A stretch of 64,000 nt of DNA from the IMG/VR virus record IMGVR_UViG_3300022748_000015, positions 60,827-124,826 of that record; one strand, 5' to 3'. This stretch comes from a virus. This document shows positions 1,815 to 36,450 of the stretch, in pieces; positions within the stretch are counted from its first letter, which is position 1, and every line of letters starts with the position of its first letter. The translations under genes and the position numbers were made by a program. The notes below the pieces were generated by a model. It was not told where the DNA came from, searched no databases, and saw nothing but the letters and a program-made list of their open reading frames with translations.

Positions 1815-1816
1815 GA

Positions 1817-3214
1817 CTATGCCATCAAATCGCCAACAGCAATCCAGGAGTTGGTTCCTGGACGCTTGATAAGAGTTGCTGACGCCCAACGGGTGCGAAT
1901 TCTAAGACCAGGAACTCCCTGGATTGTTACGTTTCCATTAGCTGGAGTTAGGGTTACAAAACCAGTTCCAGTACTAATTACTGTAATTTGTGCACCAGTA
2001 GTAAATCCAACGGTTGCCTCATCGGGGACATATAGGTTGGTATCCGAACTACTTGATATCTCTACGATTTGACCATCATCAGATAGCGCAAGTGTATAGC
2101 TAGTGGCTAGCTGATTAAACGAGTAGTGATACGAAACAGGTCCGGTTGGTCCAGTCACTCCAGGCCCTGTAGGTCCTGTTACGGTGGATGCTGGTCCGGT
2201 TGGTCCAGTCACTCCAGGCCCTGTAGGTCCTATTGCTCCTGCAGTTCCTTGAATTCCTTGCACACCCTGAGGTCCGGTTGGCCCCTGCACACCCTGAGAC
2301 CCTGCGGTTCCAGTTGGACCAGTCGCTCCCTGGATTCCTGCACCAGTTGCGCCAGTAGGACCGGTTGGTCCCTTAGTTCCTGTTGGACCAGTAACCGAAG
2401 GTCCAGTTACAGAAGGTCCGGTAGCACCCGTTGGGCCGACTCCACCCTGCGGTCCAGTTGGTCCAGGATTACCCTGCACACCCTGGACACCTTGAGTACC
2501 TTGCGGCCCGGTTACACCGGTGGCACCTTGTATACCAGTTGGGCCAGTTACGGAAATACCTATAGGTCCGGTGGCTCCAGTAGGGCCCACTACATTTGAA
2601 GGAGCACCAGTCGGTCCAGTTGCACCGGTCTCACCCTGAGCACCTGTTGGTCCAGTTGGTCCTTTATCTCCAACATCTCCAGTACGAGCAAAGGTGATGT
2701 AGATACCAGCTGTATTTGAAATTGAAGTAACCGAGCCAGAAACATAGGCAATAGGTACTTCAAAATAGGTGTCATGGTGGTAGTGATTGCCAACTATTGA
2801 ATAGTAGATATAGTTTTCTGGAGCATTTATCTCCGAAATTTTAAAAGTTCCCTTGATGGCAGAAGATGAGTCATCAATAGTTTGTAGGAAGCTTGAGATA
2901 TCTGTATCAGATAGGTCGTACCAAGAAATATACATTTCTGTAGCACTAGTTAATAGATTATTGAAGCTTAGATTACCGTGCCCTGGGTTTTCATCAATAA
3001 CTGATGTTAGGTAGTGGTATTCATATGTTGCTCCACCAAAAGTACCCTGAGGACCTTGCGGTCCAGTCGCACCAGTTGGTCCAGTTACAGTAGAGTCAGC
3101 ACCAATGGGACCTTGATCACCCTGAGGACCAGTTGGTCCCGTAGGACCATGAGCACCAACAATTACCGGCTCCCATTGTCCGGAATCTTGGTTAAATTGC
3201 TTTAATTGGCTCAT
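1817..3214 (-). CDS. Collagen-like (GPT/GIQ) tail fibre protein with conserved C-terminal domain
   Basis: Long Gly-X-Y tracts; C-terminus ...[28 protein letters not shown] shared with 5797-7932 and 19640-22750. Confidence 0.85.
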
Positions 3215-3539: not shown

Positions 3540-3873
3540 TTTCTATAAACTTCCCATCTACATATTTATAGTTGATCTTGGCTTCTGAAGTATCTTCAGT
3601 AACCAGCACAAAAGTAGGTTGAGCTAGCAACATATCGGCCAAAAAATCCTGAGCTCTCATGACGTCAAATACTTGACCATCAATAACTAGAGCTATTGTA
3701 TGGATAGTTGCATTCTCTGGCTCACTATTATGGGTATGGCTCTTGTCGTGACTATGACTATTACCACTATCGTGACTGTGATTACTGGATAGCGAGTTCT
3801 TTATCTTCGTAAAAATAGATACTGAAGGCATTCCTGCCTCTGATGGTTTAGGTATTTTGTGCCTTGGCTTCAT
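3523..3873 (-). CDS. Hypothetical protein with His/Ser-rich linker; paralog of 4581-4823
   Basis: IALVIDGQV...LAQPTFV resembles IAVLIDNVV...LANPTFV. Confidence 0.6.
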   Translation of the reverse strand: MKPRHKIPKPSEAGMPSVSIFTKIKNSLSSNHSHDSGNSHSHDKSHTHNSEPENATIHTIALVIDGQVFDVMRAQDFLADMLLAQPTFVLVTEDTSEAKINYKYVDGKFIENEPTT

Positions 3874-4562
3874 TAGTTATATTCCTTGCGGTGCCACATT
3901 GTCTTTTTATAGTTAAAGTCAGCCATACGAGCCAACATTCCTCGGTAGTCAGCTTTCTTTTTAATATTTTCAGCCTTATCTACCATTACCCAGGATTCAC
4001 GTTTAATTGGTATTAGCTGAGCTATTGGCGTACCTTCAGGAATTACTCCTTCAAAGTCTTCCTTTATAAAGAAGGGGATATTTCCAGCAGCAAAAAATTC
4101 ATCGGAGTCCATTATTGCTGAAACGGTGTGAAATGGGAGCTCGTGTCGGTTTAGTGGATGAGTAACTAAGAGACTAAACCCTTTAGGAGTTTTTATTCCC
4201 CAGAAACCGGAGAATGCCAGATGATTTGGAGCAAATCCAGGGGGTCGAGGTATAGTTGCACCTAACTCCTTAGGACGCTCGTGAATAATCTCGCCTACTG
4301 GTGTTTTAGCATAAGAAAAATTAATTTCTCCAGAGTCGGACCTAGACACCTCTACATCAAAAGGAAATCTTAATACATACCCGCTCATCATGGAGTCAAC
4401 AAATGGCATGCATTTCTTTAAACCAGCTGATTCTTCTTGATGCCCATCGCTAGTAAAGGTGCTTTCAGCATCTTTATACCAGGCGGGTATGGTCATTTTT
4501 GTGGGTACTGGTTTCCCGTAAGCTTCTTTGGCTTTATCAGTGAAGAATTTAATAAACTTCAT
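3873..4562 (-). CDS. Hypothetical protein, dUTPase-fold-like; paralog of 13843-14574
   Basis: PAWYK..KKCMPFVD..GY and PFFIKE..G.IP.GTPIAQLIPIKRE shared with 13843-14574. Confidence 0.6.
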   Translation of the reverse strand: MKFIKFFTDKAKEAYGKPVPTKMTIPAWYKDAESTFTSDGHQEESAGLKKCMPFVDSMMSGYVLRFPFDVEVSRSDSGEINFSYAKTPVGEIIHERPKELGATIPRPPGFAPNHLAFSGFWGIKTPKGFSLLVTHPLNRHELPFHTVSAIMDSDEFFAAGNIPFFIKEDFEGVIPEGTPIAQLIPIKRESWVMVDKAENIKKKADYRGMLARMADFNYKKTMWHRKEYN

Positions 4563-4831: not shown

Positions 4832-5797
4832 TTAGTTTCTATCTATAGTTATTTTACTAATATTTGTAGTTTGGTTGTACGAGCTTGGAGCAATAGCTAA
4901 TCCGAACTTAGTTGATTTTACAGAACCGGTAGCTGTATAGGTCATATCAGAACCTATCTGTGAAGTCATATTAGTATCTGAATATGCTTGGATTGTAATA
5001 ACGTCTCCAAAAGTTTTAACTCTAAAAGCAGCCGATATTGCCGCGATCGCCTGGGACCATATCGAACTAACTACTCCTGAGACACTATTTAAAATTTTAA
5101 AATACTGTGGGTAGCAGGTATTACATGAAGTGTAGTAACATGTGCTACAAACAGTTCGATAGCATGTGCTGCAAGAGTACCAAGCACTTGACCAACTATA
5201 GCAGTTGCAGTCATAGGGTGTTGTACTACACACGGTACTGTAATCTGCAGTACATGTTGGTGCTACATAATACCAAGCTACGCAGCCAACTCCGTACACT
5301 CGTACATCGCAACCGTATGCTCCTCCAGAGCAGTAATATGTCCCTGTTGCTCCATAACTACAGCTATAGCTGTAGCATGTTGAACATGTTGTACCACTTG
5401 CATATTGAGGAACACAGGAGCAGTCATATGGTTGGTCTGAACAGCTACAGCTATACCCAACTTGAGAGCAGTTACAGTTTTCTGGTTGGCTAAAGCTTTG
5501 TACTCCCCACCAGTTACCGGAATCTGTGACCCATAGGGCAGCCATGGCCCCCTGACCACCTGCAATTAGTTCTACCTTAGCGTTTTTTACACCCATATCT
5601 ACTACTTGTAGAGGGTAGCTTGATGCAGAGGTAGATGTATTTAGTAGGTTATTTACAATGTTGAATGTTCCACTAAGGATATTCCACTTACTTCCATCAG
5701 TAGCAGCACCTGGTGTAGAGGTTGTATTTGCACGGATAAAAGTATCAACAAACTTCTTACGAAGAGAAGATGATGATGCCGAGATATGTGGTCTCAT
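4832..5797 (-). CDS. Cys-rich virion protein (putative fibre tip)
   Basis: Start placed at ATG 5797, overlapping the upstream TAA (TAATG); 22 Cys in a central ~125-aa tract. Confidence 0.7.
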   Translation of the reverse strand: MRPHISASSSSLRKKFVDTFIRANTTSTPGAATDGSKWNILSGTFNIVNNLLNTSTSASSYPLQVVDMGVKNAKVELIAGGQGAMAALWVTDSGNWWGVQSFSQPENCNCSQVGYSCSCSDQPYDCSCVPQYASGTTCSTCYSYSCSYGATGTYYCSGGAYGCDVRVYGVGCVAWYYVAPTCTADYSTVCSTTPYDCNCYSWSSAWYSCSTCYRTVCSTCYYTSCNTCYPQYFKILNSVSGVVSSIWSQAIAAISAAFRVKTFGDVITIQAYSDTNMTSQIGSDMTYTATGSVKSTKFGLAIAPSSYNQTTNISKITIDRN

Positions 5798-7931
5798 TAC
5801 GCCACCGTATCTCCGAATAGTACCCATGTGTCGGCTGATCTCTTGTAAAGAGTGGCCGATGACCACTGAGCACGAGTATTATTTCCAGGAGTGTAGTTTA
5901 GGGTAACTCCAGAAGCTGCAACAACTGTAACCTGGCCAGCACCTGTCTGCATAAAGGTTATTGATGAGCCTACAGGGATTGATACCGAAGCATTAGTCGG
6001 TACTGTCACTGTAATTGTTGATGCATTATTGAATTCAGTGAAATATAGTGGATCAGTTGCGGCTAAGGTGTAGGTTGTTCCGGTCTGTGCATTCACCGGG
6101 TATGTTAGTGATGCCTTAGATGCTAGATCAGTAACAAGATTAGTTACCTGTGACTCAGCGATAACGAGCGTAGATTGGTCTTTATTTTTCCAAAGACCAG
6201 TAGATGACTCATACTGAAGCAAATCGCCATTAGTTTTTGAAGTAATAAGTATATCGTGCAACTCGTCTAGTTCAAATCCATTCTGAGGGCGAATAAAAAT
6301 TTCACCATTATTTGAGTTTGCACGAGTAACAATACCAATAAATACTAGGTGCGCCGGAGCAACTGGCTTATTTGCTAAACCATAAACAAGAGATCCATTA
6401 ACTCCTAGCCATACAGGATCTCCAGCACTAGCTCCATTAGTATTTAATCCAGCAAGAAGACCTTCAGTAATTACATTTGCTACACCATTAATCGCAACGG
6501 TTGCATCAAGTAGACCCATAGTCTTGCTCGACGTAGCTTCACTTGCATTACTTGCTAGAGAAACAATCATGTTTGTTCCATCAGCAGAACTTACATAGAC
6601 TGGCTGACCCTTATTGATTGCAGCCGCAGCTTTAACCTGGTGGCGAATTGACTCTGAGTAGTTAGCAATCCAAGTCGTGTTGTAGTCGGTACCATCAACC
6701 TTTGCAAGGATCTGCCCGGCAGTTCCGCCTGCAGCAACGCCAGGTCCGGCTGCACCTGTTGCTCCAGTATTTCCAGTTGATCCGGTTGGCCCGGTTACCG
6801 TGCTTGCAGCACCAGTAGGTCCTGTTATGCTAGGACCAGTAGCGCCAATTGGGCCTTGAGACCCTGTAGGGCCAGTAGGGCCATCAGTTCCATTAGTTCC
6901 TGCAGCACCAGTAGGTCCCGTGGCTCCTGGTGTACCATCTGCGCCAACATATCCATTAGCGCCTGCTGGTCCGGTTGGTCCGGGAACAGTAGAAGCAGCT
7001 CCAGTTGGTCCTGTTACGGAAATGCCAGCTGGTCCGGTTGCACCTGTTGGTCCTGCAACTGTTGAATCTGCACCTGTAGCACCTGTTGGGCCAGTCACGG
7101 AAGGACCCGTAGGACCTGAATCACCAGTTGCACCAGTAGGGCCAGTAGCACCAGGAAGTCCTGCATCGCCCGAAGCACCGGTTGGGCCGGTTGGTCCCAT
7201 GCCTTCAATACCGCTAACACTAGTATCAAGCCATAACTGAGAAATATCAGAAGGTGCAGTAGCCTGAGTTATTACACCCTGGTTTCCAGTTGATCCAGTT
7301 GGACCAGTTACAGAAGGTCCGGTTGCACCTGTAGGGCCAGTAGCACCAGTATCCCCCGTAACACCTTGAATGCCTTGAATACCTTGAATGCCTTGTACGC
7401 CCTGATCACCCTGAGCACCTCGAGCGCCAGTAGGTCCAGTTACATTTGAAGGAGCACCAGTTGGTCCAGTTACAGAAGGTCCGGTTGCACCTGTTGGTCC
7501 TGCAACTGTTGAATCTGCACCTGTAGCACCTGTTGGGCCAGTTGGTCCTACATCTCCTCTAGGCCCGATTTGACCAGTTAATCCTTGGATACCTTGGATA
7601 CCTTGGATACCTTGAATCCCCTGTACACCTCGCGATCCGGTCGGGCCGATACGTCCGATAGACCCGGTCTCACCCTGAGCACCAGTTGGTCCAGTTACAC
7701 TAGGACCTGTTGCTCCAGTTGGACCTTGCTCTCCAGTTGATCCCGTAGGGCCGGTTACCGATGGTCCGGTTGGGCCAGGGATACTAGAGGCAGCTCCTGT
7801 AGGACCGGTGGGTCCACCGACTGCTTGAGTCGAGCGGGCTTCCCAGGTGTAGCCATTCCAAACCCATGACGAGCCTTCGAAGCTATAAATATCACCCTGC
7901 GACGGATCTAGTGGAAAAATAAAATCGGTCA

Positions 7932-7932
<1 letters not shown>
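5797..7932 (-). CDS. Collagen-like tail fibre protein with conserved C-terminal domain
   Basis: GPTG/GIQG tracts; C-terminal ..[23 protein letters not shown]. Confidence 0.85.
7031..7542. repeat. 65-bp exact direct repeat (7031-7095 and 7478-7542) within the collagen gene
   Basis: Identical ggtccggttgcacctgttggtcc...gggccagt. Confidence 0.85.
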
Positions 7933-9484
<1,552 letters not shown>

Positions 9485-9485
<1 letters not shown>

Positions 9486-9847
9486 TATCGAGTAACCTCC
9501 GGACGAACGACAAGATTGCCTTGAATAACTTTTGTTACTATCCCCGTAGAGGTTTCTTCTACTTCCAGATCATAAGTGTATTTACCTATTTCTAAGGCTT
9601 CAGTCTGGGATGGGCTAGCTATGATTAATATTGATCCGGCTGTTCCATTGATCTCGATACCACCGTTCTCAGTGGTCAACGTTAGAACTACCGACATAGA
9701 CGAGGTTTTTTCACGAACTTGCATACGAGCTGTATATCCAGTAATGGTTATTGGCTTTTTTGCTGAGTTTTTGACTGCAATTGACCGCAAAAGCGTAGCG
9801 CCTTGATCGACAATAATGTCGTAATAATTTGCGGTAGCACAGTGCAC
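9485..9847 (-). CDS. Virion-associated protein (BppU-like Ig fold?); paralog of 24873-25235
   Basis: [31 protein letters not shown] shared; GTG start with AGAGGA RBS. Confidence 0.6.
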
Positions 9848-9877
9848 GGGGAAATCCTCTGAGAAATTGGCCTATTT

Positions 9878-9898
9878 CTTCTACTATTTTACCCTATT
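9878..9898 (-). promoter_or_regulatory. Putative late promoter, copy 2
   Basis: Identical to 3251-3271; upstream of the fibre operon. Confidence 0.6.
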
Positions 9899-9913
9899 GG
9901 AGCAAGATTGATA

Positions 9914-10600
9914 CTAGTAGATAGGGGTGCCGTTCTTAATACCCTGCTTCCATTCTGCCTGCTGTACAGCCTGCTGTTCACGCACCTTAGTGACCTCCTC
10001 GTCCCACTCCTTGATGCGCTCCTCCGAATACTCGGATTCGGCAAAATCCCAGAATGCTCCGATAGTGTGGCGAGTCCCTGTTAGAACTTCCTTAACCTGG
10101 TGTACATTGTTAATTCCCCCCGGGAATGTAATTAATTGACCCGATTTAGGTTTAATTGTTAAGCTGTGGTCTCTAAAATCGAGTTCTCCACCCTCGTAAT
10201 CATCGTTTACATAGAGTAGGCAAACAAACTTACTTTTCTCCCATGCTGACCAGTTGCCATCCATATCGGTATTATCCGAGTGGAACGGTGCAAAAGCTCC
10301 CTTTTCCCATTTTTGGGCATGGCTAGATACAGACTTAACTGGGCGCTGATGCGCATCTTCTACATACTCTTTAAGTCTTGATGCTAGGTTTCCTAGGTAA
10401 TCCTTAGGCAATCCGTACTTCTCTAAAAGTGGTTCGTCGGGTAGAAGGCTCATCCCGTATGACTCGAAAAATGCCGACATTGTCCACGGTAGTTCAGGAT
10501 CTTCGAAGTAGGATACGAGCTTTTGCTGGTCCTCTACCGGGATGAAGTCGTCGTAGCAGATGATATCTTCCTTTAAGAATCTTTTATTCTCGATGCTCAT
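9914..10600 (-). CDS. 2OG-Fe(II) oxygenase (prolyl 4-hydroxylase-like)
   Basis: HSD...LYVNDDYEGGEL...H..R motifs. Confidence 0.9.
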   Translation of the reverse strand: MSIENKRFLKEDIICYDDFIPVEDQQKLVSYFEDPELPWTMSAFFESYGMSLLPDEPLLEKYGLPKDYLGNLASRLKEYVEDAHQRPVKSVSSHAQKWEKGAFAPFHSDNTDMDGNWSAWEKSKFVCLLYVNDDYEGGELDFRDHSLTIKPKSGQLITFPGGINNVHQVKEVLTGTRHTIGAFWDFAESEYSEERIKEWDEEVTKVREQQAVQQAEWKQGIKNGTPIY

Positions 10601-11060
10601 CGGTTGTCTCTCCTGTATATCCTAAGTTAGAAAGAAATCTTTCGTGGTCAAATCTTTGATTGTCTCTAGAAAATATCTTAGCAAACGTAAAAATTAGTTT
10701 ATTAAAAGTTGGTTCTGGCGTCTCTAATTTAGCCGATTCTAGAGCTTTAGTAACCTCTAGGTAGTCATTTTTTAGGAACGTACATTCTCCGCCACGTGGG
10801 CGTTTAAGTATTTTTTCATGTGTAGTGCCGGTAGGCTCGTATAAAGTCACGGTTAGATATTCTTTCGCAAATCCCCAGTCGGAGTAGGCTGCATATCCTG
10901 TAGCTGCATCCAGGGCATTGTCATAGAAGTAGATAGATCTGACTGGATTCTCGCCATCTCTAGCTACGGTTAGCATGTAGCCAGAAGCCACTTTATCTCT
11001 AACTTCTAACTTAAACTTTTCAACCATATCCAGGTTAACTGGATTTAAATCTCCAGACAT
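10584..11060 (-). CDS. Hypothetical protein
   Basis: 158-aa ORF coupled to neighbours; no recognised motif. Confidence 0.6.
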   Translation of the reverse strand: MSGDLNPVNLDMVEKFKLEVRDKVASGYMLTVARDGENPVRSIYFYDNALDAATGYAAYSDWGFAKEYLTVTLYEPTGTTHEKILKRPRGGECTFLKNDYLEVTKALESAKLETPEPTFNKLIFTFAKIFSRDNQRFDHERFLSNLGYTGETTDEHRE

Positions 11061-11710
11061 CAGCTGTCTTTTCTTAGTAGGAGCTTACTCTTCCAGTGAT
11101 GAGTAATAAGCATTTTTCTACCTTTAGTAATTTCACACGACTGGTGGAGGTAGGGAAGGTTGGATGGAAACATTACTATGCTTCCAGCCTTAGGTTTTAG
11201 CTTAAGGTCTATGGAAGGATCAACGAAATATAACTCTCCGCCTTCATAGTCATCATTCAAATAGACAACGATGGTGTATGCAATATCGTAGTTTTGCTCA
11301 TTCCAGTCAATGTGCGGTCCCATGAACTGGCCTTCAGAGTATTTATTTATGCCAATCTTTGTATTTGGTAGCTTCATGGCTTCTAGCGCATACTCGAGCT
11401 GTTCGGGATCTATTCCGTATTTAAAGGCGTATTCAATAGCGCATATCCCCATGGAAGTGGCTATTGTTCCAAAAATCCCGATGATTGCTTGCTTAGTGGT
11501 GAGGTCTGATTCTTCAGTTAAAAGATCTTTGACCATACTCTTTAAGTCACCATATCGATGTGACCCCTCTGAATTAGCATACCAAGGCAGCCATGGGGTT
11601 AATGCAATACTATTAGTCTTTTCAATGTCATTGACTACTGATTCTATATTTGGAATTGCGTTCTCGAAATATAGGATATTGTTGTAAACCTCTTTATAGG
11701 CAATGCCCAC
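11060..11710 (-). CDS. 2OG-Fe(II) oxygenase (P4H-like)
   Basis: HID...YLNDDYEGGEL...HQ..GRK. Confidence 0.9.
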   Translation of the reverse strand: MGIAYKEVYNNILYFENAIPNIESVVNDIEKTNSIALTPWLPWYANSEGSHRYGDLKSMVKDLLTEESDLTTKQAIIGIFGTIATSMGICAIEYAFKYGIDPEQLEYALEAMKLPNTKIGINKYSEGQFMGPHIDWNEQNYDIAYTIVVYLNDDYEGGELYFVDPSIDLKLKPKAGSIVMFPSNLPYLHQSCEITKGRKMLITHHWKSKLLLRKDS

Positions 11711-11712
11711 AG

Positions 11713-12510
11713 TTATGCCTCTGGTGTTAAATACGGGTTTACAATTGGCTCGTACTGGGATCCTGCGTTAAAGAACTTACGAGACTCTTCATCATGTTGA
11801 TCATAGTCTGGGTGGAATACAAATCCAGGGAACATGTATTTATCTCCAGACTTCATGATGTGAACCTGATGCTTGTAGGGATGCGTAGACGGGAAGATCA
11901 ATGCTGATCCAGCCTTTGGCTTACGCCAGAAGTCAATTAGACCTGAATCCTTAGCATCCTCGATATCTTCTTCTGGCTTCAGTAGGTCATTCTTTGGGTC
12001 GCGGAGATCATAGTCTCGAATGATGAATGAGATTTCCCCACCCTCGTAGTCTTCATTCAGATATAGAACAATAGAGTACTTCAAAGTACGGTCGCCAGCC
12101 TGGGCATCAAAGTGGGCCCCCATTGCACAGCCTGGTCGATACTTCATGATTCCTACGAAAGGAGATAGATTTGGCTCATAATCGAACTCTCGGTCTCTAA
12201 AGTAAGCTTCCGCTACCTTCTTAACACCTGAGCGAATCTGATCAATAATGTACTGAACATCTGCCTTATATTCCTCTGGAAGTTGGTCAACCAGATCAGG
12301 ATTAAAATCTTTTTTACCACCAAAAGTGTGACCATCATTGCTATTTGATAGCCACTTACCCCACTTAGGGATGACAGAGTAGACTTCCTCGACCGAATCA
12401 AGATCTTCAATCATCTTAATGAGTTTACGAGGGTCCTCGATTACGTTCTCGTATAGGAAAACCTCTTCATGAAGTTTCTCAGCTAGGTGCATTTCTTTAT
12501 TCTCTGACAT
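11713..12510 (-). CDS. 2OG-Fe(II) oxygenase (P4H-like)
   Basis: HFD...YLNEDYEGGEI...HQV..GDK. Confidence 0.9.
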   Translation of the reverse strand: MSENKEMHLAEKLHEEVFLYENVIEDPRKLIKMIEDLDSVEEVYSVIPKWGKWLSNSNDGHTFGGKKDFNPDLVDQLPEEYKADVQYIIDQIRSGVKKVAEAYFRDREFDYEPNLSPFVGIMKYRPGCAMGAHFDAQAGDRTLKYSIVLYLNEDYEGGEISFIIRDYDLRDPKNDLLKPEEDIEDAKDSGLIDFWRKPKAGSALIFPSTHPYKHQVHIMKSGDKYMFPGFVFHPDYDQHDEESRKFFNAGSQYEPIVNPYLTPEA

Positions 12511-12543
12511 GTATATAATCCTATCTTAAGTATCTATTTGTAA

Positions 12544-13137
12544 TTAAAAGTCCCAAAAGGCCATAATGGTGTATCTAAATCCTGAGGTTACTTCCTTCAC
12601 CCCGTGAATATTTTCAAAACCACCGGGAAAAACTAGTAAGTCATTCTTTTCCGGTTTTATCTCTAGGCCATGATCTGGGAAGTAGATCTCCCCGCCTGAG
12701 TAGTCAGAATTAGCATATAGTATAGATACATATTTCAACTTACTAAACTCAGATACATTGCCCTTGTAGTCTGAATTATCTGAGTGTGGGTCAGCTTGTC
12801 CACCTTTTGACCACCGCTGGGCTTGTACATAGGTATCTAGTACAGGGTGTTCAAAGATACTTTCTACAGTTGATTTAAACTTTTTACTTAGGTTTAAAAA
12901 GTAATCCTTTGAAAGACCTCTAGACTCGAGGTTACTTTCCATATCTACTAAAGAGATTCCATAGGACTTATTGAATGATGTCTCGCTCCAAGGAAGTTCA
13001 TCATTTTTTAAAATATCCATAAGGATATCCAGCTCTTTTTCATCCAGGAAATCAGATATTCTAACTAGTCGATTAGTTTTAATACCCAACTTACTATCTA
13101 AAATAGGCTCATCTTTGTAGTAAGTTATAGTATTCAT
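12544..13137 (-). CDS. 2OG-Fe(II) oxygenase (P4H-like)
   Basis: HSD...YANSDYSGGEI...HGV..GFR. Confidence 0.9.
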   Translation of the reverse strand: MNTITYYKDEPILDSKLGIKTNRLVRISDFLDEKELDILMDILKNDELPWSETSFNKSYGISLVDMESNLESRGLSKDYFLNLSKKFKSTVESIFEHPVLDTYVQAQRWSKGGQADPHSDNSDYKGNVSEFSKLKYVSILYANSDYSGGEIYFPDHGLEIKPEKNDLLVFPGGFENIHGVKEVTSGFRYTIMAFWDF

Positions 13138-13829
13138 TGAGGTTGACGTTCACCTGTGTGCTTGGCGATAGTCCAGAAAAATGGGCAAGTGTAGCGAATG
13201 CCTGATTCGATCTTCGTTACTCCATGGATGTAGTTCATATCACCAGGGAAGAAGTATGCAGCTCCACGCTTAGGCTTGAACTGAATTCCTTGGAGTGGGA
13301 AATACAACTCCCCACCCTCGTAGTCATCATTGATATAAAAGAGTCCAGCAATATCGTAGTAAGGGAAATCATTAGGGATACCGCGGTTAGGCTCTTCATG
13401 CAGTTCTTTGTCTGCATGGGGCATCTGCAACTGACCTGGAAGCCAGCGCACCATAGCCGGGCTAGTGGGGATTGCGTCAACCTGAAGGTACTTATCTACC
13501 TCAACCTTTAGGCGAGCTACCATTCCTTCAATAATCTTAGGAATCTCTTCACTAGTTTTACGGATCGTATCGTATGTGGCTACTCGATCCTTCCAGTACT
13601 CTGAGTCATAGATTACGGTACCATCGTCATTGTAGTGAGTTTCAGTCACGTCCCAATATTCGTTATTACGAATGAAGGTATCTAAAGTAGTAATCTCTTC
13701 TTCAGTCATAAAGTTTTCTAGAGTAACAATGTTGTCAGGGGAGTTACCAAAGAATCCTGAAGGAGTTATAGAGACTCGGTCATTCATCGCGTGTTGGTTA
13801 TTGGAGTTTTCGAACTCGTTATTCTGCAT
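13134..13829 (-). CDS. 2OG-Fe(II) oxygenase (P4H-like)
   Basis: HAD...YINDDYEGGEL...HGV..GIR. Confidence 0.9.
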   Translation of the reverse strand: MQNNEFENSNNQHAMNDRVSITPSGFFGNSPDNIVTLENFMTEEEITTLDTFIRNNEYWDVTETHYNDDGTVIYDSEYWKDRVATYDTIRKTSEEIPKIIEGMVARLKVEVDKYLQVDAIPTSPAMVRWLPGQLQMPHADKELHEEPNRGIPNDFPYYDIAGLFYINDDYEGGELYFPLQGIQFKPKRGAAYFFPGDMNYIHGVTKIESGIRYTCPFFWTIAKHTGERQPQ

Positions 13830-13842
13830 AGTTATATCCTAG

Positions 13843-14574
13843 TTATCCGTAAATTCTTCTAGTCCAGACGGAGTTCTTGTATACTCCACCATCTCGTACT
13901 CGATACTTGGTTGAGTTATCATGGTTACTCTTAACCATAGTCTTGTAGTCAGGAACCGAGATCTCTGACTCCCAGTCCTCACGCTTGAAAGGGATGAGCT
14001 GAGCATAAGGAGTTCCAGCTGGTAGAATTCCAGTCCAACCTTCCTTAATAAAGAAAGGCATGGTTCCTGGTAAATTCACCTTATCATTGTCAATCACGCC
14101 ATTAGTTGTCTGGAATGGTAGATCATACCGATTCAGTGGGTGAGTGTACAGAACGCTGTACCCCTCCGGAACTGATACGGCCCAGTCAGCCCACCAAGCA
14201 AAGTGCTTCTCGTGATAACCCATGGGGTGGACAAACTGAGGTAGTGGGTCTCGGGGGCCGCAGAAATCTTGGTTCTGAGGGTCTAATACTTTTACTGCAA
14301 TTTGATTATTTGAATCTAGATAGAACTCTAGGTCACATGGTGTTTTATAGACATATCCAGTCATCATTACATCCATGATTGCTGGGCACGCCTTCCATGT
14401 AGGGATCTTCCCTTGCTGTGGGTGCTCCCATGGCTCGTTAGTCATTGGATTGATGGCAAACCGATCTGCTTTACGATACCAGTCTGGAATGTTTTTAGAT
14501 GTGGGTTCAGGTGTTGACTTACTGTCTTTTTTAAGCCACGGGCGGTTAGCAATAAATTTAATCTTGTTGCTCAA
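13843..14574 (-). CDS. Hypothetical protein, dUTPase-fold-like; paralog of 3873-4562
   Basis: KACPAIMD..GY; PFFIKEGWTGILPAGTPYAQLIPFKRE. Confidence 0.6.
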   Translation of the reverse strand: MSNKIKFIANRPWLKKDSKSTPEPTSKNIPDWYRKADRFAINPMTNEPWEHPQQGKIPTWKACPAIMDVMMTGYVYKTPCDLEFYLDSNNQIAVKVLDPQNQDFCGPRDPLPQFVHPMGYHEKHFAWWADWAVSVPEGYSVLYTHPLNRYDLPFQTTNGVIDNDKVNLPGTMPFFIKEGWTGILPAGTPYAQLIPFKREDWESEISVPDYKTMVKSNHDNSTKYRVRDGGVYKNSVWTRRIYG

Positions 14575-15292
14575 TCGTGGCTCCTGTCACTGGGCATGTA
14601 ATGGTCTTCAATTTAATCGATTTAGTTTCGTGTTTTCCGACGACTTCACCCTTGTAGTTCAAAGCATCTCGATACATTTTTGACCAGTCCCCGACACCAT
14701 TTTTGATTTCTGCAGCATCTCCGTACTTGGTTACTTCTTCCCAGTACGCACGGTCAAGGAATTTATCTGAAATCTCTAGTTGATAGTCGCCCTCTAAGGC
14801 TCCTAAAGAGATAGGGAGAACTGCAGCAACTGGAGTTCCAGCCGGGATGAATACTTCAATGTTTGGTTCCGTTAGACGCCAACCCAGAGGTAGTTCTGGC
14901 ATATAGAATGAAGTACTAATCAGGGTTGTATAGCATTGAGCACCACGAATGAACTGATTTGGAACAGGCATCGATAGAAGGGTAGTGTTCTGATCAGTTT
15001 TAAACACTAAACCTGATCTGAAGCTAATAGTCGCATTTCCGCGGCCAGTGTATACATACTCTTCCCCCTCGAGGACTTTGATGTGGGTGTCAGTAGTATC
15101 GGTAATTCCATCCCAGATGAAGCGAATATCCTTAGGGAACGATATTCCCCAGCCTAGTTTATTAGTCAGACTTACAGGGAAGCACATATATGCGTGCTTA
15201 TCTGCAGTCTCGTCCATCCAGTCTCGTCTAGCGGTTAATGGTTCAATGTTTGCTACATTGTTTCCAGCCTTGGTTACAGTAATAGTCTTCAC
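14558..15292 (-). CDS. DUF6065-like protein
   Basis: RDWMDET..HAYMCFPVSLTNKLGW N-terminal signature. Confidence 0.65.
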   Translation of the reverse strand: MKTITVTKAGNNVANIEPLTARRDWMDETADKHAYMCFPVSLTNKLGWGISFPKDIRFIWDGITDTTDTHIKVLEGEEYVYTGRGNATISFRSGLVFKTDQNTTLLSMPVPNQFIRGAQCYTTLISTSFYMPELPLGWRLTEPNIEVFIPAGTPVAAVLPISLGALEGDYQLEISDKFLDRAYWEEVTKYGDAAEIKNGVGDWSKMYRDALNYKGEVVGKHETKSIKLKTITCPVTGATIEQQD

Positions 15293-16050
15293 TAGTTACC
15301 AGTCTCCTCGTAGAACTTAGGGTTGTGGAACTTCTCTGAGAAGTCAAGCATGGTAACCATCGAATATTTGACACCAGAGATTACTGGCATTGCACGATGC
15401 GGGTACATGAAGTTTGAAGGGAAGATATAAGTCTCTCCAGCCTTTGGTTTAATGGTTGCACCCTGTAGACGGAAGAACAATTCTCCACCTTCATAGTCAT
15501 CATTAGGAAAGCTAACTAGAGATACTACGCAGTTGTATGAGTAGCCGTGGTCGTGGTGCTCCTGGAAGTGCTGACCTTCTCCATAACGAACGTAGTTAGT
15601 TGCTTCCCAGTATCGAAGCTCTCCTACGTTGTATCGGCGGGTATAGTCCTTAACAGCTTGGAGTTGGCGATAGTTGACATCATCTGCCAACTCTTGTAGT
15701 GCTAGTCCAGCTTCTGACTTATCGTTGATAATGTCTGACTTTTTGTATTTAAAATCTACGCAATCACGGTATTCTGGCATTCGCATGGCATAGCCAACCA
15801 TAGCCTCGGCGTATGAGTAGTTATTGCTTGGATCAGCTAGCACTGTTTCCAGTCGCTCGATGATATTCATATCCTTTGGTAGGACATCTCGATATACCCA
15901 AATTCCTGACCCAGGGGCAACCTCTTCGCAGGATGTCCAGGTTTTCTCTTCGATGTTATACCAAGCTTTTAGACGTTCTTCTACTGTCTTCTGCTCTTGC
16001 TTACCTAGCTCTTCTATTTTCGCTGAGGTACTTACTATCTCTGGTTGCAT
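15292..16050 (-). CDS. 2OG-Fe(II) oxygenase (P4H-like)
   Basis: HHD...PNDDYEGGEL...HRA..GVK. Confidence 0.9.
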   Translation of the reverse strand: MQPEIVSTSAKIEELGKQEQKTVEERLKAWYNIEEKTWTSCEEVAPGSGIWVYRDVLPKDMNIIERLETVLADPSNNYSYAEAMVGYAMRMPEYRDCVDFKYKKSDIINDKSEAGLALQELADDVNYRQLQAVKDYTRRYNVGELRYWEATNYVRYGEGQHFQEHHDHGYSYNCVVSLVSFPNDDYEGGELFFRLQGATIKPKAGETYIFPSNFMYPHRAMPVISGVKYSMVTMLDFSEKFHNPKFYEETGN

Positions 16051-16784
16051 TAGTATTTCAACTCATATTCCGTAATTACATGTGGTACTCGACGATTAAC
16101 ATTATCACGATCATTGTAGTCGCTCATGATGACTATAGCGTACTTGGTTCCGTCGATCATATCTTCAGAGGCATGCTCATAGATAAAGATAGACGGGAAT
16201 ACTACAATATCTCCTGCTTTAGGCTTAATCTTCAAGCCATCCATTCGAGGGAAATAAATCTCTCCGCCTTCATAGTCATCATTCAAATAGATAACGATAG
16301 ATACAGTACTGACATAGGTTGGACCATGGTCAGCGTGAATCTTAAAGTGGGTACCCTTACCGGGATACTTTACAAAATTAAATGCCTCGAATGACTGCAT
16401 CCCTACACCCCAGTAGCGCCCGTAGTCTGATACGCAGCTATACATGCTCTGAAAAATTTCTTCATGCATATCCAGAAGCTCGGCATTCTGAGGAGTTCTA
16501 GGCCCTAAATCCTTCGAGCCAAACTTAAAGTCTAGGGCATTTCTAGCTGAAACATCCGCCTCAGCTGAGTTGGTAACCATGGCACCCTGCCATTTGTAGG
16601 GTCCTGACCCATCTAGCTTATTTTCGAGGGTTTGAATAAACTTTGCGCATTGCTCTGGTGTATAGGCGCCTCTATAGATATTTATACCTAGAGCTGGATT
16701 TAGTACGGTAACGTTACCATACTGTCGATCTGGCATTCTATTAGATGAGGTCTCTGATCTATCTTTAGTGAACCAATCATTCAT
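16050..16784 (-). CDS. 2OG-Fe(II) oxygenase (P4H-like)
   Basis: HAD...YLNDDYEGGEI...HAS..GTK. Confidence 0.9.
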   Translation of the reverse strand: MNDWFTKDRSETSSNRMPDRQYGNVTVLNPALGINIYRGAYTPEQCAKFIQTLENKLDGSGPYKWQGAMVTNSAEADVSARNALDFKFGSKDLGPRTPQNAELLDMHEEIFQSMYSCVSDYGRYWGVGMQSFEAFNFVKYPGKGTHFKIHADHGPTYVSTVSIVIYLNDDYEGGEIYFPRMDGLKIKPKAGDIVVFPSIFIYEHASEDMIDGTKYAIVIMSDYNDRDNVNRRVPHVITEYELKY

Positions 16785-16800
16785 AGATCCAGTCTATACC

Positions 16801-17799
16801 TTATTCTAAAATAATTGGCTCTAAAAGTCTAAAATCTTCTGCGTGTCTAGGTATACCTAAGTTGTTATAGTTTGGATTATATTCGCAAATTCTATGATCC
16901 ATCCCTGACATTTTGCAATACTCTTCTACGGACTCTTTAGGGATGTCTCCATATATGCCTGTAAGTCTCCCTGATAGTAATAGATTTAGTTTCAACATTG
17001 AATCATCTGATTGTTTCCAGAAAGCATCTTTATTCATATCTGACCACGGGCGGTGGGTAGTCATTCTAGAGTGGATCTCGTCTGGGTACTCTTTGTATGT
17101 ATTGTGGTAATAAAGGATTCTTGGTGTTGAATAGAAACGCCACCCGCGGCACCATGCTTGGATGGTTACATAAATCTCTTCACCGTGATAACACATATCC
17201 GGGTCTAGCGGGACTTCATCTACAAACTCTTTAGGTGCAAATACCCAGCTGAGCTGTAGGTAGTAGTCTTCATGAACCGAACTATCCTCCGGAACTAGCT
17301 GAGTTCCCGGGAAACTATGGCCTGGAATATATCCTTCAGTTATGAATGGTCTATAGCTATTTTTTACTCGTCCTGCTCTAGAAGTATAGCTAATGCTCCA
17401 GTCTGAATTCATCTCGTACTCTGGCCCAGAGACCGTGAGTAGCGCTTTAGGATTTATTTCTTTTGCTTTTTCGTATTCCTCTAGAACTATAGTGTCCCAG
17501 CCTTCGGCAAATAAGTTGTGCCCGCAGGTATAGAGAATATAGTCATATTCTTCAGATACTTCTGTTGTCTTATCCCTAGACCAAAGTACCCCTCTATATT
17601 TTGAGAGATCGTATTTTCTATAGACTAGCTGACCCTCAGGGATGAAACTTAGGTCTGCATGAAGCTCTGGCTTACTTTGCTCCGATACAATCGAGAATAT
17701 TAGATTCCCTGGCTTAGCTGCCTTCTCATAGCAATCTCTAACTGACTCAGCTAGTTGACGCTCGCGATAGGCGATCATTGAGACAAGTATTTTTGTCAT
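16801..17799 (-). CDS. Glycosyltransferase, GT60/PF11397 (Skp1-hydroxyproline GlcNAc-transferase)-like
   Basis: ILVSMIAYRE..L..SV..CYEKA.KP..L; EVPLDP..C..GEE....AW..GW.FY.TP; the canonical DSH position reads CGH. Confidence 0.7.
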   Translation of the reverse strand: MTKILVSMIAYRERQLAESVRDCYEKAAKPGNLIFSIVSEQSKPELHADLSFIPEGQLVYRKYDLSKYRGVLWSRDKTTEVSEEYDYILYTCGHNLFAEGWDTIVLEEYEKAKEINPKALLTVSGPEYEMNSDWSISYTSRAGRVKNSYRPFITEGYIPGHSFPGTQLVPEDSSVHEDYYLQLSWVFAPKEFVDEVPLDPDMCYHGEEIYVTIQAWCRGWRFYSTPRILYYHNTYKEYPDEIHSRMTTHRPWSDMNKDAFWKQSDDSMLKLNLLLSGRLTGIYGDIPKESVEEYCKMSGMDHRICEYNPNYNNLGIPRHAEDFRLLEPIILE

Positions 17800-18590
17800 A
17801 GAGGTATATATCCTTCAACATTCTTAATAAAGTCTATACCTACAACAGTGCATTGCTGACATCCAGGACATTCCTTATTACCTTCCGGTAAGTCGTTAAA
17901 GTATGGCCCATGCCCGGAATGCTCGTAATATCTTATGTCACCATCGAGCTTATACTTCTTCATAGCCTCTGCGTACTGGATATTTCCTTCTTCGGAGTAG
18001 CAATCAATGTCATAAATCCAGTGGTCTTTAGTTGCATAATTAGCAAAAAGAACTGTTACGTAAGCTTCTTCATCGTCTACTGGATATCTAGGCCGAGTAT
18101 GTACCTGCTGTTGGCCCATAAAAAAGATTCCGCTATTATTTTGCTCCTCGAAACGCTCACCATCAATTGAGAGCCCCCAGCTCGGAACTCGATGTGATTC
18201 CACGCAAATATCCGCTGTGTATTGAGTAGCTGGTTGATCCATGTGCTCCCAGATGTATGGGGTTATTCCCTTATATTGCTGGTATCTGGCTACCCAAACT
18301 ATTTTTAGTCTAAGTTCTGGTAATCCCCATTGTTCTTTTCCTAGATTCTCTAGGTACTCCCAGACCTCTGGTGGAAAGTCTACCTCTGTATGCCATCTAC
18401 CGAGGATGTTGTGATACGGAGTTGCATTAGGTTTATTTTCTGAACCTGGTCCCCAGTTTGCTTGTTCATCAATAGTTGTTTTTACCTTATTCAAAATATC
18501 TTTAGTAAATACATTTTCTAGATAAAAAGCTGGCTTGCCTTCTGGAAGCTTCCATTTAATGTTTGGACTAGTATCAGCGTGTATAGGCAC
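17796..18590 (-). CDS. Divergent 2OG-Fe(II) oxygenase-like protein (subfamily B)
   Basis: HMD..YTADIC...HTR, shared with 37222 and 38085; C-terminal CPGCQQC. Confidence 0.6.
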   Translation of the reverse strand: MPIHADTSPNIKWKLPEGKPAFYLENVFTKDILNKVKTTIDEQANWGPGSENKPNATPYHNILGRWHTEVDFPPEVWEYLENLGKEQWGLPELRLKIVWVARYQQYKGITPYIWEHMDQPATQYTADICVESHRVPSWGLSIDGERFEEQNNSGIFFMGQQQVHTRPRYPVDDEEAYVTVLFANYATKDHWIYDIDCYSEEGNIQYAEAMKKYKLDGDIRYYEHSGHGPYFNDLPEGNKECPGCQQCTVVGIDFIKNVEGYIPL

Positions 18591-18609
18591 AATCTCTCCT
18601 GGGAATGCT

Positions 18610-18640
18610 AAAAGAGGAGCAGATTTCTCTGCCCCTCTTC
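18610..18640 (-). terminator. Intrinsic terminator downstream of the PPFF gene
   Basis: Minus strand gaagaggggcaga-GAAA-tctgctcctctt followed by tt. Confidence 0.6.
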
Positions 18641-18656
18641 TAGGTTATATCTTTTT

Positions 18657-19622
18657 TTATTCTTCGTCTTCTTCGACTTCAGATTCCTCTTCCATCATAC
18701 TCGGATCAATAGAGAAGATTCCAAAGCGTGGTGGGAATGAAGGTGGGAAGAACGGTGGGAAGAACGGTGGGAAGAACGGTGGGAAGAAAGGTGGGAAGAA
18801 GGGGAAGTAAGGGAAGAAAGGTGGGAAGAACGGTGGGAAGAATGGGAAGTAAGGAGGGAAGAACGGTGGGAAGAACGGTGGGAAGAACGGTGGGAAGAAT
18901 GGGAAGTAAGGAGGGAAGAACGGTGGGAAGAACGGTGGGAAGAACGGTGGTGTAGTAGAGATAGTATTAGTGGTTACAGTAGCCGAGTTACCATTTGCGT
19001 TAGTGGCATAGAGGCTAAAGTACTCATTTGTTCCACCTGGAACGGGGGTATCGTAGTATACAGCGCTAGTAGGAGTGCCGCTATTGGCTAGGGACCCTAC
19101 TCCGATGACGATAGGAGTATTTGGGGCTAGCGATGGAACCAGCGTAGTTTGAGTAATAGCTGAACCACCAGTTGCTCCTACAGTCCAAGCAATTCGGTCA
19201 GAGTCAGCACTTGGCGAGCTTAGGGCTGGCGACTGAGGAGCTTGAGGAACAGTAGTAACTGCAACTGAAGATGATGTTACTGCATTAGAATTTCCAGCAG
19301 CATTCTTTGCAACTACAGAGAATGTATATGAAACTCCAGAAGCAAGACCTTCAAACACAAACGGTGCACCACCAGTAGGTAGTGTAGTTGTATTCTTAGT
19401 TACAGTTGCTGGGGTTGAAGTGATGTCATAGCTTGTTGCTGCTGGAGATAGTGCTGGAAGGGTCCATACTAGGTTTACAGCACCACCCTGACCATTAGTT
19501 CCGGTAGCTACAGCAAGGTATGGTCGGTTAGTTCCAACGTTAGTTGCAGTTGTGATTGTTACATCATTAGGCTGTAGGAAGTCATTCTGTGACTGTGAGT
19601 GTCTACCAGCTCTTTTTGCCAT
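18657..19622 (-). CDS. FN3-domain virion protein with (PPFF)n tract and acidic tail
   Basis: FEGLASGVSYTFSVVAKNAAGNS FN3 motif; 76-aa Pro/Phe tract; ends EEESEVEEDEE. Confidence 0.85.
   Translation of the reverse strand: MAKRAGRHSQSQNDFLQPNDVTITTATNVGTNRPYLAVATGTNGQGGAVNLVWTLPALSPAATSYDITSTPATVTKNTTTLPTGGAPFVFEGLASGVSYTFSVVAKNAAGNSNAVTSSSVAVTTVPQAPQSPALSSPSADSDRIAWTVGATGGSAITQTTLVPSLAPNTPIVIGVGSLANSGTPTSAVYYDTPVPGGTNEYFSLYATNANGNSATVTTNTISTTPPFFPPFFPPFFPPYFPFFPPFFPPFFPPFFPPYFPFFPPFFPPFFPYFPFFPPFFPPFFPPFFPPFFPPSFPPRFGIFSIDPSMMEEESEVEEDEE
18723..18950 (-). repeat. Coding 12-nt tandem repeat (plus strand ggtgggaagaac) encoding PPFF
   Basis: About 20 units, with a duplicated (PPFF)3-PPYF-PFF higher-order unit. 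Confidence 0.95.
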
Positions 19623-25915: not shown

Positions 25916-26309
25916 CTCGTATGTACGACATCGTTTATTTCTCAAACGTGTCGGGGAATACTAAAAGATTTGTAAATAAATTAGGTTTTAACCTAATTCA
26001 GATACCCCTGCGCTGGGATGAAAAATCCCCCTTGACTGTAGAACGTGAATACGTTATAGTAAGTCCTACGTACGGTGGTGGAGCAGACAATAGAACTGTT
26101 CCTAAATCGGTGATTAATTTCTTGAATATAGAAAGTAATCGTGCTTTACTTAGAGGTGTTATAGGTACTGGAGATTTCAACTTCGGTACTCACTTCTGTA
26201 AGGCTGCGGAGATTATTTCAGCAAAAACCGGAGTGCCTTTGCTGTATAAAGTTGAAATAACTGGCACACCAGACGATGTAGAACAAGTAAAAGAGAGGCT
26301 AGAGCTGCT

Positions 26310-29395
<3,086 letters not shown>

Positions 29396-34500: not shown

Positions 34501-35112
34501 ATGCGACTAACCCCTACAACAATAGATGGCCTGATTCTCGAGGAGCTAGAAGACGGTATCTATCTAATTAGAAACTTTATTATTGATGAAGAGCATAACT
34601 ATCTTTTAAATGTTTGCAAGTCTGCTCCTGAATCTGAGTGGGCTGATTCGTATATGGAAACTCTACGAGGAGAAGTGGAGTATCGCCACGGTAAAGAAGA
34701 ATTGGCTAATATTCAAAACCATGTAAATGAGTTTTGGTTGGACAAATGTATCTCGGTCCCTGATCTAGACCTAAGCTTCAAACTTGCTGACAGATTGTAT
34801 AAATTTTTAAGCAGTGCTGGTACGCTGCTAGTTAAACCTTTTATCAATGTACAACGCCAATATACAGGTGTTTCTTTAGCCGAGCACCACGATCAGGCTT
34901 ACGACGAGAAGATAGCTTTTGCTAGTGTTTTATATCTCAATGAAGACTTTGTAGACGGAGAACTATACTTTCCTAACAAGGGTTTGAGCTATAGGTTTCC
35001 TGAGAAAAGCCTGGTTATTTTTGCTGCTGGCCCTGACTTTGTGCATGGAGTTAAGTCTGTCGGTGACGGTCCAACTAGATATGTCATTACCTCTTTCGTG
35101 TGGAGTTCATAG
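34501..35112 (+). CDS. 2OG-Fe(II) oxygenase (P4H-like)
   Basis: HHD..YLNEDFVDGEL..HGV..TR. Confidence 0.88.
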   Translation: MRLTPTTIDGLILEELEDGIYLIRNFIIDEEHNYLLNVCKSAPESEWADSYMETLRGEVEYRHGKEELANIQNHVNEFWLDKCISVPDLDLSFKLADRLYKFLSSAGTLLVKPFINVQRQYTGVSLAEHHDQAYDEKIAFASVLYLNEDFVDGELYFPNKGLSYRFPEKSLVIFAAGPDFVHGVKSVGDGPTRYVITSFVWSS

Positions 35113-35697: not shown

Positions 35698-35713
35698 CTA
35701 TACTTAAATACAT

Positions 35714-35790: not shown

Positions 35791-35844
35791 CTTTTTGCCA
35801 AAATATAGATATTCTGCTTATTGAAAATATGTTATTATCTATAT

Positions 35845-36447: not shown

Positions 36448-36450
36448 AAA

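Follow-up and report, generated by a model that had tools for sequence, protein, structure and literature searches.

What do the tandem 2-oxoglutarate (2OG)-Fe(II) oxygenases of phages act on? Such multi-copy enzymes have been noted since at least 2010 without a known substrate (PMC3037559, PMC2938197). The question is raised again by the stretch of DNA given above, the final 64 kb of an IMG/VR virus record of 124.8 kb (IMGVR_UViG_3300022748_000015) estimated to be 73% complete, which is referred to here as the window. Between positions 9914 and 19622 it carries seven oxygenase genes (ox1 to ox7) resembling those of prolyl 4-hydroxylases (P4H) and two genes for DUF6065-type proteins, and upstream of them stands a gene whose product carries a long Pro-Phe repeat, (PPFF)n. 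In related phages the enzymes are tightly and directionally tied to this one unusual and easily synthesised sequence, which turns an annotation problem into a testable one. That the core prolyl-hydroxylase-like enzymes hydroxylate the Pro-Phe tract is about as likely as not; from sequence and structure models we infer the substrate, chemistry, virion location and timing. If the tract is indeed hydroxylated, and here perhaps glycosylated, phages would tailor their fibres chemically as eukaryotes do collagen and extensins, with consequences for host recognition of abundant lake phages, and the array would be a source of small prolyl hydroxylases with a defined peptide substrate.

Gene order and linkage to the Pro-Phe repeat gene

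From 19622 down to 9914 every gene lies on the minus strand and intergenic gaps are nearly nil. The genes named by a first-pass annotation all lie where it had placed them, on that strand, in the order FN3-(PPFF)n, B, GT60-like, ox1, ox2, DUFa, DUFb, ox3 to ox6, a 158-amino-acid (aa) protein and ox7. The features of the region are as follows.

18657..19622, minus strand: FN3 protein with the (PPFF)n tract, candidate substrate (open reading frame (ORF), fn3 PF00041, phrog_31)
18683..18746, minus strand: 21-aa C-terminal tag PPSFPPRFGIFSIDPSMMEEE of the FN3-(PPFF)n protein, which also ends a second, Thr-rich FN3 protein
18612..18640, minus strand: RNA hairpin, terminator-like or attenuator-like, between the repeat gene and B (dG -26 kcal/mol)
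17796..18590, minus strand: protein B, 264 aa, probably a divergent 2OG-Fe(II) oxygenase, accessory (invariant motif in relatives)
16801..17799, minus strand: GT60-like glycosyltransferase (PF11397), T-C-G-H for D-x-H, lineage-specific insertion (Pfam, phrog_24687)
16050..16784, minus strand: ox1, P4H-like 2OG-Fe(II) oxygenase, core orthologue (PF13640 E 1e-11; HxD...H...K)
15292..16050, minus strand: ox2, P4H-like oxygenase, core orthologue (PF13640 E 1e-12; triad intact)
14558..15292, minus strand: DUFa, DUF6065 protein, core (PF19541 E 3e-27)
13843..14574, minus strand: DUFb, protein with a predicted dUTPase fold, conserved Cys and G-[IV]-I-D-N-D, core (phrog_7084 E 2e-33)
13134..13829, minus strand: ox3, P4H-like oxygenase, most conserved core orthologue (PF13640; model pLDDT 85)
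12544..13137, minus strand: ox4, P4H-like oxygenase, variable part of the array (PF13640 E 6.5e-10; triad intact)
11713..12510, minus strand: ox5, P4H-like oxygenase with an insert, variable part (PF13640 E 3.8e-10; triad intact)
11060..11710, minus strand: ox6, P4H-like oxygenase, variable part (PF13640 E 1.7e-15)
10584..11060, minus strand: 158-aa protein without assigned function, recurring across many cassettes (no Pfam or PHROG match)
9914..10600, minus strand: ox7, P4H-like oxygenase, last gene of the array (PF13640 E 1e-9; triad intact)
9485..9847, minus strand: tail-fibre-assembly-like protein, downstream boundary, with collagen fibre genes next (phrog_1084, phrog_3304)

The FN3-(PPFF)n protein is 321 aa long and matches fn3 (PF00041, E 1e-5) and phrog_31, tail fibre J. 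Its last third consists of a 76-residue Pro/Phe(/Tyr) tract followed by an acidic tail, and translation of the ORF confirmed the earlier description of a C-terminal 76-aa Pro/Phe repeat encoded upstream of the enzymes. The tract, at 18723-18950, holds Pro, Phe (and Tyr) only and is coded by near-perfect 12-bp CCACCGTTCTTC units. Ser and Thr are almost absent from it, and therefore hydroxylation would have to precede any O-linked modification.

The linkage between repeat gene and enzymes was followed by three differently seeded IMG/VR searches, using the FN3 protein, DUFb, and a DNA pattern for PPFFPPFFP alone. The FN3 seed returned 59 loci; on every contig that extends past the repeat gene, that gene is succeeded by ox1, ox2, DUFa, DUFb and ox3 and, after these, by a changing set of oxygenases. 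The DUFb seed returned 23 loci, each of which, if it reaches upstream, has a Pro-Phe-repeat gene before ox1. With both seeds the PFF/PPFF-repeat gene lies on the same strand and directly 5' of ox1 in every locus reaching far enough, and homologues with a PFF/PPFF tract stand upstream of the cassette in about 80 loci. The pattern scan yielded at least 120 loci, in which oxygenase and DUF6065 genes were then called by local hidden Markov models (HMMs). Among the loci listed, 70 repeat genes are followed by 2.5 kb or more of sequence; for 58 of them an oxygenase gene lies within 4 kb downstream, and for 54 a DUF6065 gene lies downstream, compared with an oxygenase within 4 kb upstream in only 2 of 49. 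The co-occurrence of Pro-Phe proteins with oxygenase arrays, which the first-pass annotation had put forward as a check, was thereby observed. Five exceptions were examined: three carry five to six PF13640 genes elsewhere in the same record, and the other two are fragments estimated to be 13% and 31% complete.

Two core gene orders were found, plus a more distant form in which an ox3-like gene comes first. Orthologues of ox1 (43-73% identical) and DUFa occur in nearly every cassette, those of ox2 are 42-82% identical, and those of the 158-aa protein (38-58% identical) occur in many loci. The conserved core comprises the repeat protein, ox1, ox2, ox3 and the two DUF6065 proteins, because carrier domains, gene order and flanks vary while the linkage persists. 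For instance, carriers of the repeat range from about 100 aa to more than 1000 aa, some having one to three fn3 domains and others lacking them; the C-terminus past the tract differs too, being a Cys-rich knot in some and a Gly/Tyr tail, an acidic tag or a Hint/intein-like domain in others; and the repeat itself varies between PPFF, PFF and FFAPPx, with PP and FF kept throughout. What has been observed is the gene content, the folds, the catalytic motifs and a linkage that is both conserved and directional.

In the (FFAPPx)n lineage (L192 2977-3810, L208, L211, L233), ox2-like, DUFa and ox3 genes still lie directly downstream. A Hint/intein-like domain follows the tract in sister phages (L011 2550-3959, L021 8893-10191, L072 5622-6983, L079 6320-7621, L279 3040-5559 and others) with the pattern (PPRFG)-C[IV]E...DT.I ... 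[VIT]HN(K), PPRFG standing immediately before the Hint Cys. The presence of this domain implies that the protein cleaves itself, or is ligated, where the tract ends, and the repeat protein of the window has PPRFG and then the tag in place of Hint. Many Pro-Phe proteins end in short Cys-rich segments with 6-10 Cys per about 25 residues (L012, L013, L034, L035, L039, L043, L045, L049, L056, L061) and may thereby present small disulfide or metal knots at the tract terminus.

Collagen fibres, in contrast to the repeat gene, were rejected as a conserved partner. Of 78 arrays only 22 have collagen genes nearby, and all 22 belong to the sub-lineage of the window, so collagen fibres find no support as a general feature of the system. 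The local claim that they flank the array was right for the downstream side, where PF01391 matches lie in 7932-9485 and 5797-7932 and a further collagen-like gene at 1817-3214, and wrong for the upstream side, where the neighbour is an Mtd_N fibre protein. The tail-fibre-assembly gene, used as a seed, returned 5 loci only.

Enzymes of the array and their partners

PF13640 matches seven ORFs within 9914-16784. Six of them score 39.6-58.2 bits against a cut-off of 27, and ox3 falls on either side of that cut-off, with 26.4 bits from hmmscan and 28.2 bits from the genome search. In alignment, all seven keep HxD...H and the distal Arg/Lys, as do two further window genes, 34501-35112 and 38632-39273. 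The seven enzymes, encoded within 8 kb, are only 20-32% identical to one another, which marks them as old paralogues and not recent copies. The ox3 model (pLDDT 85) is a double-stranded beta-helix whose nearest structures are prolyl hydroxylases: Foldseek placed vCPH of the chlorovirus PBCV-1 first (E 1.8e-10), followed by Bacillus anthracis P4H, human P3H1, PHD2 and Chlamydomonas P4H (E 1e-10 to 1e-8). Profile search of ox3 against the PDB likewise gave P3H1 (2e-5) as well as P4H, and ox6 matched B. anthracis P4H by sequence (5e-4). Family matches, triads and the ox3 model together bear out the first-pass call of seven intact P4H-like oxygenases, and sequence and model support the array enzymes being prolyl-hydroxylase-like.

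A second, looser group lies on the plus strand at 34501-41518 of the window. It includes PF13640 genes at 34501-35112, 38632-39273 and 40919-41518 and two genes for B-like proteins at 37222-37764 and 38085-38645, among denV, HNH, thyX and NAD-binding protein genes.

The call of two dUTPase-fold/DUF6065 proteins was also sustained, by different evidence for each. DUFa matches PF19541 (DUF6065) at 95.9 bits against a cut-off of 26.6 (E 3e-27). DUFb has no Pfam match and is recognised by phrog_7084 at 2e-33. The two are related by hhalign (E 9e-5, probability 60%), and DUFa is without the dUTPase-like G-x-I-D-x-D motif. As modelled (pLDDT 83), DUFb has the dUTPase/dCTP-deaminase fold: its 22 best VIA matches are all dUTPases or dCTP deaminases (Z 5.7-9.5), aligned over 92-127 residues at a root-mean-square deviation of about 3 A, and Foldseek gave probabilities of 0.97-1.0, yet E values of only about 1e-2. 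The invariant residues of DUFb are G159, D162, D164 and Q192, together with the Cys residues C63 and C80; we take the first four, by sequence, to resemble dUTPase motifs III and IV. A PDB sequence search with DUFb returned chance-level rows only, and no paper mentioning DUF6065 was found in the literature.

DUFb homologues also occur outside phage cassettes. They stand alone in bacterial loci (L095-L129, e.g. L118 9896-10735, L109, L104), Pseudohongiellaceae included, and are sometimes in tandem; homologues about 30% identical are found in Bradyrhizobium. No oxygenase or repeat gene lies near the stand-alone bacterial copies, and their neighbourhoods show no conserved context (PQQ dehydrogenase, OmpA, QueH, SLT and TPR genes). 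These copies suggest recent exchange between phages and bacteria and a function independent of the cassette.

Protein B (17796-18590) has no Pfam match. Its family counts 651 representatives, and H116, D118, W138, H164 and R166 are the sole invariant residues across 42 distant relatives, 6 of which match PF13640; the nearest named Atlas clusters are PF13640/HalD (0.91-0.92). Comparison of the B family with ox3 by hhalign was not significant (probability 1.6%), and Mimivirus L230 (PDB 6ax6) is a weak profile match of the family (E 0.022). Because of the invariant H-x-D...H-x-R motif and the relatives matching PF13640, B is probably a divergent 2OG-Fe(II) oxygenase, so that the earlier label of a divergent oxygenase gains a motif to stand on and stops short of proof.

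The B gene frequently travels as a pair with the GT60-like gene, and the pair is inserted in only some cassettes. The GT60-like protein matches PF11397 at 75.3 bits (E 8e-21, cut-off 21), covering profile positions 98-288 of 352, as well as phrog_24687, and the presence of a PF11397-like glycosyltransferase at the locus was thus correctly read in the first pass. The D-x-H motif of GT60 enzymes serves metal and nucleotide-sugar binding. In a comparison of 17 GT60-like genes, the window's protein and six other distinct relatives (57-73% identical) have T-C-G-H in its place. The GT60-like genes situated between B and ox1 belong to a single clade, whose seven distinct sequences are 57-100% identical and all carry T-C-G-H. 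The ten others, including a second copy in this genome, keep D-[SA]-H; D-x-H is retained by GT60-like genes placed elsewhere near repeat genes. GT60-like genes are present in roughly 15 of about 200 cassette loci, and a PDB sequence search with the window's protein gave chance-level rows only, with no solved relative. Hyp-glycosylation, that is, glycosylation of hydroxyproline (Hyp), finds no support as a general feature of the system, since a minority of cassettes have the gene and the array-embedded clade is without the Asp of D-x-H.

The second GT60-like gene of this genome (L001 18012-18965, minus strand), with a canonical D-A-H, lies two genes downstream of the gene for the Thr-rich FN3 protein. 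The parallel is suggestive: in one case a normal enzyme accompanies a tail rich in Thr, and in the other an altered enzyme, together with hydroxylases, accompanies a Pro-Phe tail. As evidence of Hyp glycosylation it does not count.

Proposed mechanism, known systems and competing explanations

In the mechanism favoured here, the FN3-(PPFF)n gene would form one conserved phage module together with the genes that follow, and the repeat protein would belong to the tail-fibre region. Its Pro/aromatic tract would be the substrate of at least ox1, ox2 and ox3, which would turn Pro into Hyp in a reaction dependent on Fe(II), 2OG and O2 that would take place in infected cells ahead of assembly. Further hydroxylations elsewhere in the tract, on other residues or on other fibre proteins may be the work of ox4 to ox7 and B. 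The two DUF6065 proteins would be obligatory partners, of which DUFb may be catalytic and DUFa probably is not. In this sub-lineage the B and GT60-like pair has been inserted so as to separate substrate gene and array, and it may glycosylate the tract once this is hydroxylated, a step left open because the metal motif of the GT60-like protein is altered. A bolder version, resembling the tailoring of ribosomally synthesised and post-translationally modified peptides (RiPPs), would have the (PPFF)n tail hydroxylated many times by a dedicated battery with dUTPase-fold partners, glycosylated in this lineage, and freed or ligated by Hint in sister phages, the product being a hydrophilic or adhesive polyproline-type appendage. 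This version is tentative and rather doubtful. If true, it would be the first case of a structural protein of a bacteriophage being hydroxylated by several enzymes in a programmed way and would provide a substrate for the long-unexplained phage 2OG-oxygenase arrays. Of the hydroxylated and glycosylated Pro-Phe virion appendage proposed in the first pass, the P4H-like enzymes and their constant repeat-gene neighbour have been retained, its position-specific hydroxylases are putative, and glycosylation and collagen are not supported as general.

Plant extensins and mussel foot proteins are Pro and aromatic repeat proteins whose properties depend on hydroxylation. They offer an analogy only, being eukaryotic secretory-pathway substrates with no sequence relation to the tract. 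A closer counterpart is the PBCV-1 enzyme vCPH (PDB 5c5t), a virus-encoded P4H-type 2OG-Fe(II) oxygenase and the best structural match of ox3; the entry title describes a chlorovirus prolyl hydroxylase on the virus's own Pro-rich repeats. The enzyme is said, in work by Eriksson and colleagues of 1999, to hydroxylate Pro in that virus's (PAPK)n-type repeats. PBCV-1 differs in being a eukaryotic virus with one enzyme, Pro-Ala-Pro-Lys repeats and no dUTPase-fold partners, whereas the window has at least seven paralogues tied to a Pro-Phe tract, in a bacteriophage. Mimivirus L230, the weak match of the B family, is likewise a case of viral hydroxylation and glycosylation of a viral repeat protein, but as a single bifunctional protein acting on Lys in collagen repeats, and without significant homology to proteins of the window.

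The nearest phage precedents were found in cyanophages. Multi-copy 2OG-Fe(II) oxygenases of T4-like cyanophages were tabulated in 2010 with a speculative link to 2OG/nitrogen signalling or DNA repair (PMC3037559). In the same year the tandem dioxygenases gp41-gp54 of Syn9 were read as secondary-metabolite synthesis, with no protein substrate named (Iyer, Abhiman, de Souza, Aravind 2010; PMC2938197). Directly after the tail-fibre and fibre-assembly genes of Syn9 come ten dioxygenases in tandem, along with two Trp halogenases and one protein of dUTPase fold; gp43 is homologous to DUFb (hhalign 95%, E 2e-8). Both arrays combine several tandem, mutually distant classical 2OG-Fe(II) dioxygenases with a dUTPase-fold protein with conserved Cys beside fibre genes. 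Syn9 has, in addition, the two halogenases and a JmjC protein, whereas the window has two DUF6065 copies and the constant upstream repeat gene; no halogenase or JmjC/MINA-like family was found in any ORF of 9485-19622, and no Pro-Phe protein near the array in the Syn9 record. The view of the first pass that no characterised phage pathway has this form must be qualified by the Syn9 array described in 2010, in a paper that named no protein substrate. Oxygenase arrays that lie next to fibre genes and include a dUTPase-fold partner are already known; the candidate ribosomal substrate is new in the literature found, in which no paper on phage prolyl hydroxylation of virion proteins came to light. 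Just before the Syn9 array, gp36, gp38 and gp39 (L298 8856-9806, 10344-12328) are extremely Gly-rich low-complexity proteins annotated as fibre assembly, and by analogy they could be a comparable low-complexity substrate.

Several findings weigh against hydroxylation of the tract, and many of them favour an array engaged in small-molecule or free-peptide tailoring, as Iyer et al. proposed for Syn9, or acting on nucleotides, in a fibre region that tolerates accessory genes and with a Pro-Phe protein that is an unrelated fibre decoration. Cyanophages carry such oxygenases without any Pro-Phe protein, among them Syn9, which also has the DUFb homologue gp43. DUFb has a nucleotide-enzyme fold with a G-x-I-D-x-D-like motif; its homologues stand alone, at about 60% (56-65%) identity, in Gammaproteobacteria chromosomes, on contigs of up to 2.6 Mb; and in haloarchaeal viruses and cyanophage S-RIM4 one lies beside thyA, DNA polymerase or ribonucleotide reductase (RNR) genes. 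This fold and these contexts agree better with action on small molecules than with action on proteins. The genome's own nucleotide-metabolism region (denV, thyX, HNH) also contains members of the oxygenase family. Nevertheless, the fold of ox3 is nearest to protein prolyl hydroxylases and not to TET/JBP, AlkB or small-molecule enzymes, Pfam and PHROG scans of the window found no peptide synthetase, halogenase or precursor-peptide machinery, and the directional linkage to the repeat gene was kept through many rearrangements. As an account of the whole system, a metabolite or nucleotide role is unlikely. Because of the stand-alone DUFb, the thyA/RNR contexts and the extra oxygenases among denV and thyX, such a role stays alive for part of it, and not every phage oxygenase is tied to the repeat.

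Other objections concern the target and the linkage. Seven to twelve distinct enzymes are hardly needed for a two-residue repeat, and many distinct conserved orthologue groups suggest many targets. The oxygenases might instead hydroxylate other proteins, either fibres of the collagen-like or Mtd_N kind or proteins of the host, translation factors for example, with the Pro-Phe adjacency being inherited synteny. Collagen-like fibre genes do follow the array here and in close relatives, and B. anthracis P4H, a close structural match, is connected with EF-Tu modification in the title of PDB 5v7y. The loci belong to related phages, so that their counts are not independent events, and the fibre module as a whole is partly syntenic. 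These targets are set back by the restriction of collagen genes to one sub-lineage while the repeat gene is near-universal, and nothing points to a particular host target; there is perhaps a small chance that they are the true ones. Two further points also count against the tract as substrate. Its gene is separated from the enzyme genes by a strong hairpin (18612-18640, dG -26 kcal/mol, z -6.7). The first pass had placed a terminator at 18610-18640: the hairpin is real, but it is followed by a U run of 4 only and a consensus terminator scan made no call. Moreover, megablast of the region against cultured phages gave no match, nor did tblastn with the FN3 part and DUFa, and ox3 had weak partial matches only, so that no isolate with the cassette came to light.

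Nested within tract hydroxylation, as a lineage-specific possibility, is the complete scheme first suggested for this locus, in which Pro is hydroxylated, GlcNAc is transferred to Hyp by the GT60-like enzyme and an extensin-like glycosylated appendage results. In the Skp1 pathway of Dictyostelium and Toxoplasma, the prolyl hydroxylase PhyA acts before the GT60 enzyme Gnt1, a logic of hydroxylation followed by glycosylation. Here too genes for a P4H-type enzyme and a PF11397/GT60-like transferase share one locus, the transferase gene lying between substrate gene and array. The B and GT60-like pair recurs near repeat genes in several lineages (L262, L039, L070, L074, L086), the same genome pairs a canonical-motif GT60-like gene with the Thr-rich FN3 protein carrying the same tag, and the Pro-Phe tract has no hydroxyl acceptors unless it is hydroxylated. 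However, there is no Skp1-like target or gene, the coupling of hydroxylase and GT60 is not constant, being confined to that minority of cassettes, all seven distinct members of the array-embedded clade have the altered motif, and the sequence search gave the transferase no solved relative. The complete scheme is therefore quite improbable.

Neighbouring genes and probable host

The surroundings of the array offer several further observations. A third DUF6065-like gene, at 3873-4562 of the window (minus strand), encodes a protein 32% identical to DUFb (E 6e-40) and sits between the collagen-like gene 1817-3214 and the gene for a Cys-ladder tip protein at 4832-5866, so that this fold recurs within the fibre module. 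The 158-aa protein, which no Pfam or PHROG profile matched, gave viral hypothetical proteins only in an Atlas search. The second FN3 protein of the genome is 730 aa long (window 3-1889, minus strand, continuing to G000:C1 60523-62715). It combines poly-Thr and TTTTAAP repeats with a 4-Cys Tyr/Gly mini-domain and ends in the 21-aa tag of the Pro-Phe protein.

Bins of metagenome-assembled genomes (MAGs) that contain the cassette (Lishizhenia, Sediminibacterium, Acidimicrobiaceae, Luteolibacter and others) were considered as a guide to the host and rejected, as they are taxonomically scattered. Nearly all cassette-bearing MAG contigs are 2.6-17 kb long, with one of 78 kb, and they are probably mis-binned phage DNA. 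A gene for a WhiB-family transcription factor (PF02467, E 1.4e-17) lies at L001 9879-10337 on the plus strand, equal to G000:C1 about 50878-51336, and ORFs at 25921-29395 of the window are, by their translations alone, nrdI/E/F-like genes of class Ib RNR. The WhiB and class Ib RNR genes indicate an actinobacterial host, and the window thus probably derives from an uncultured lake phage of actinobacteria.

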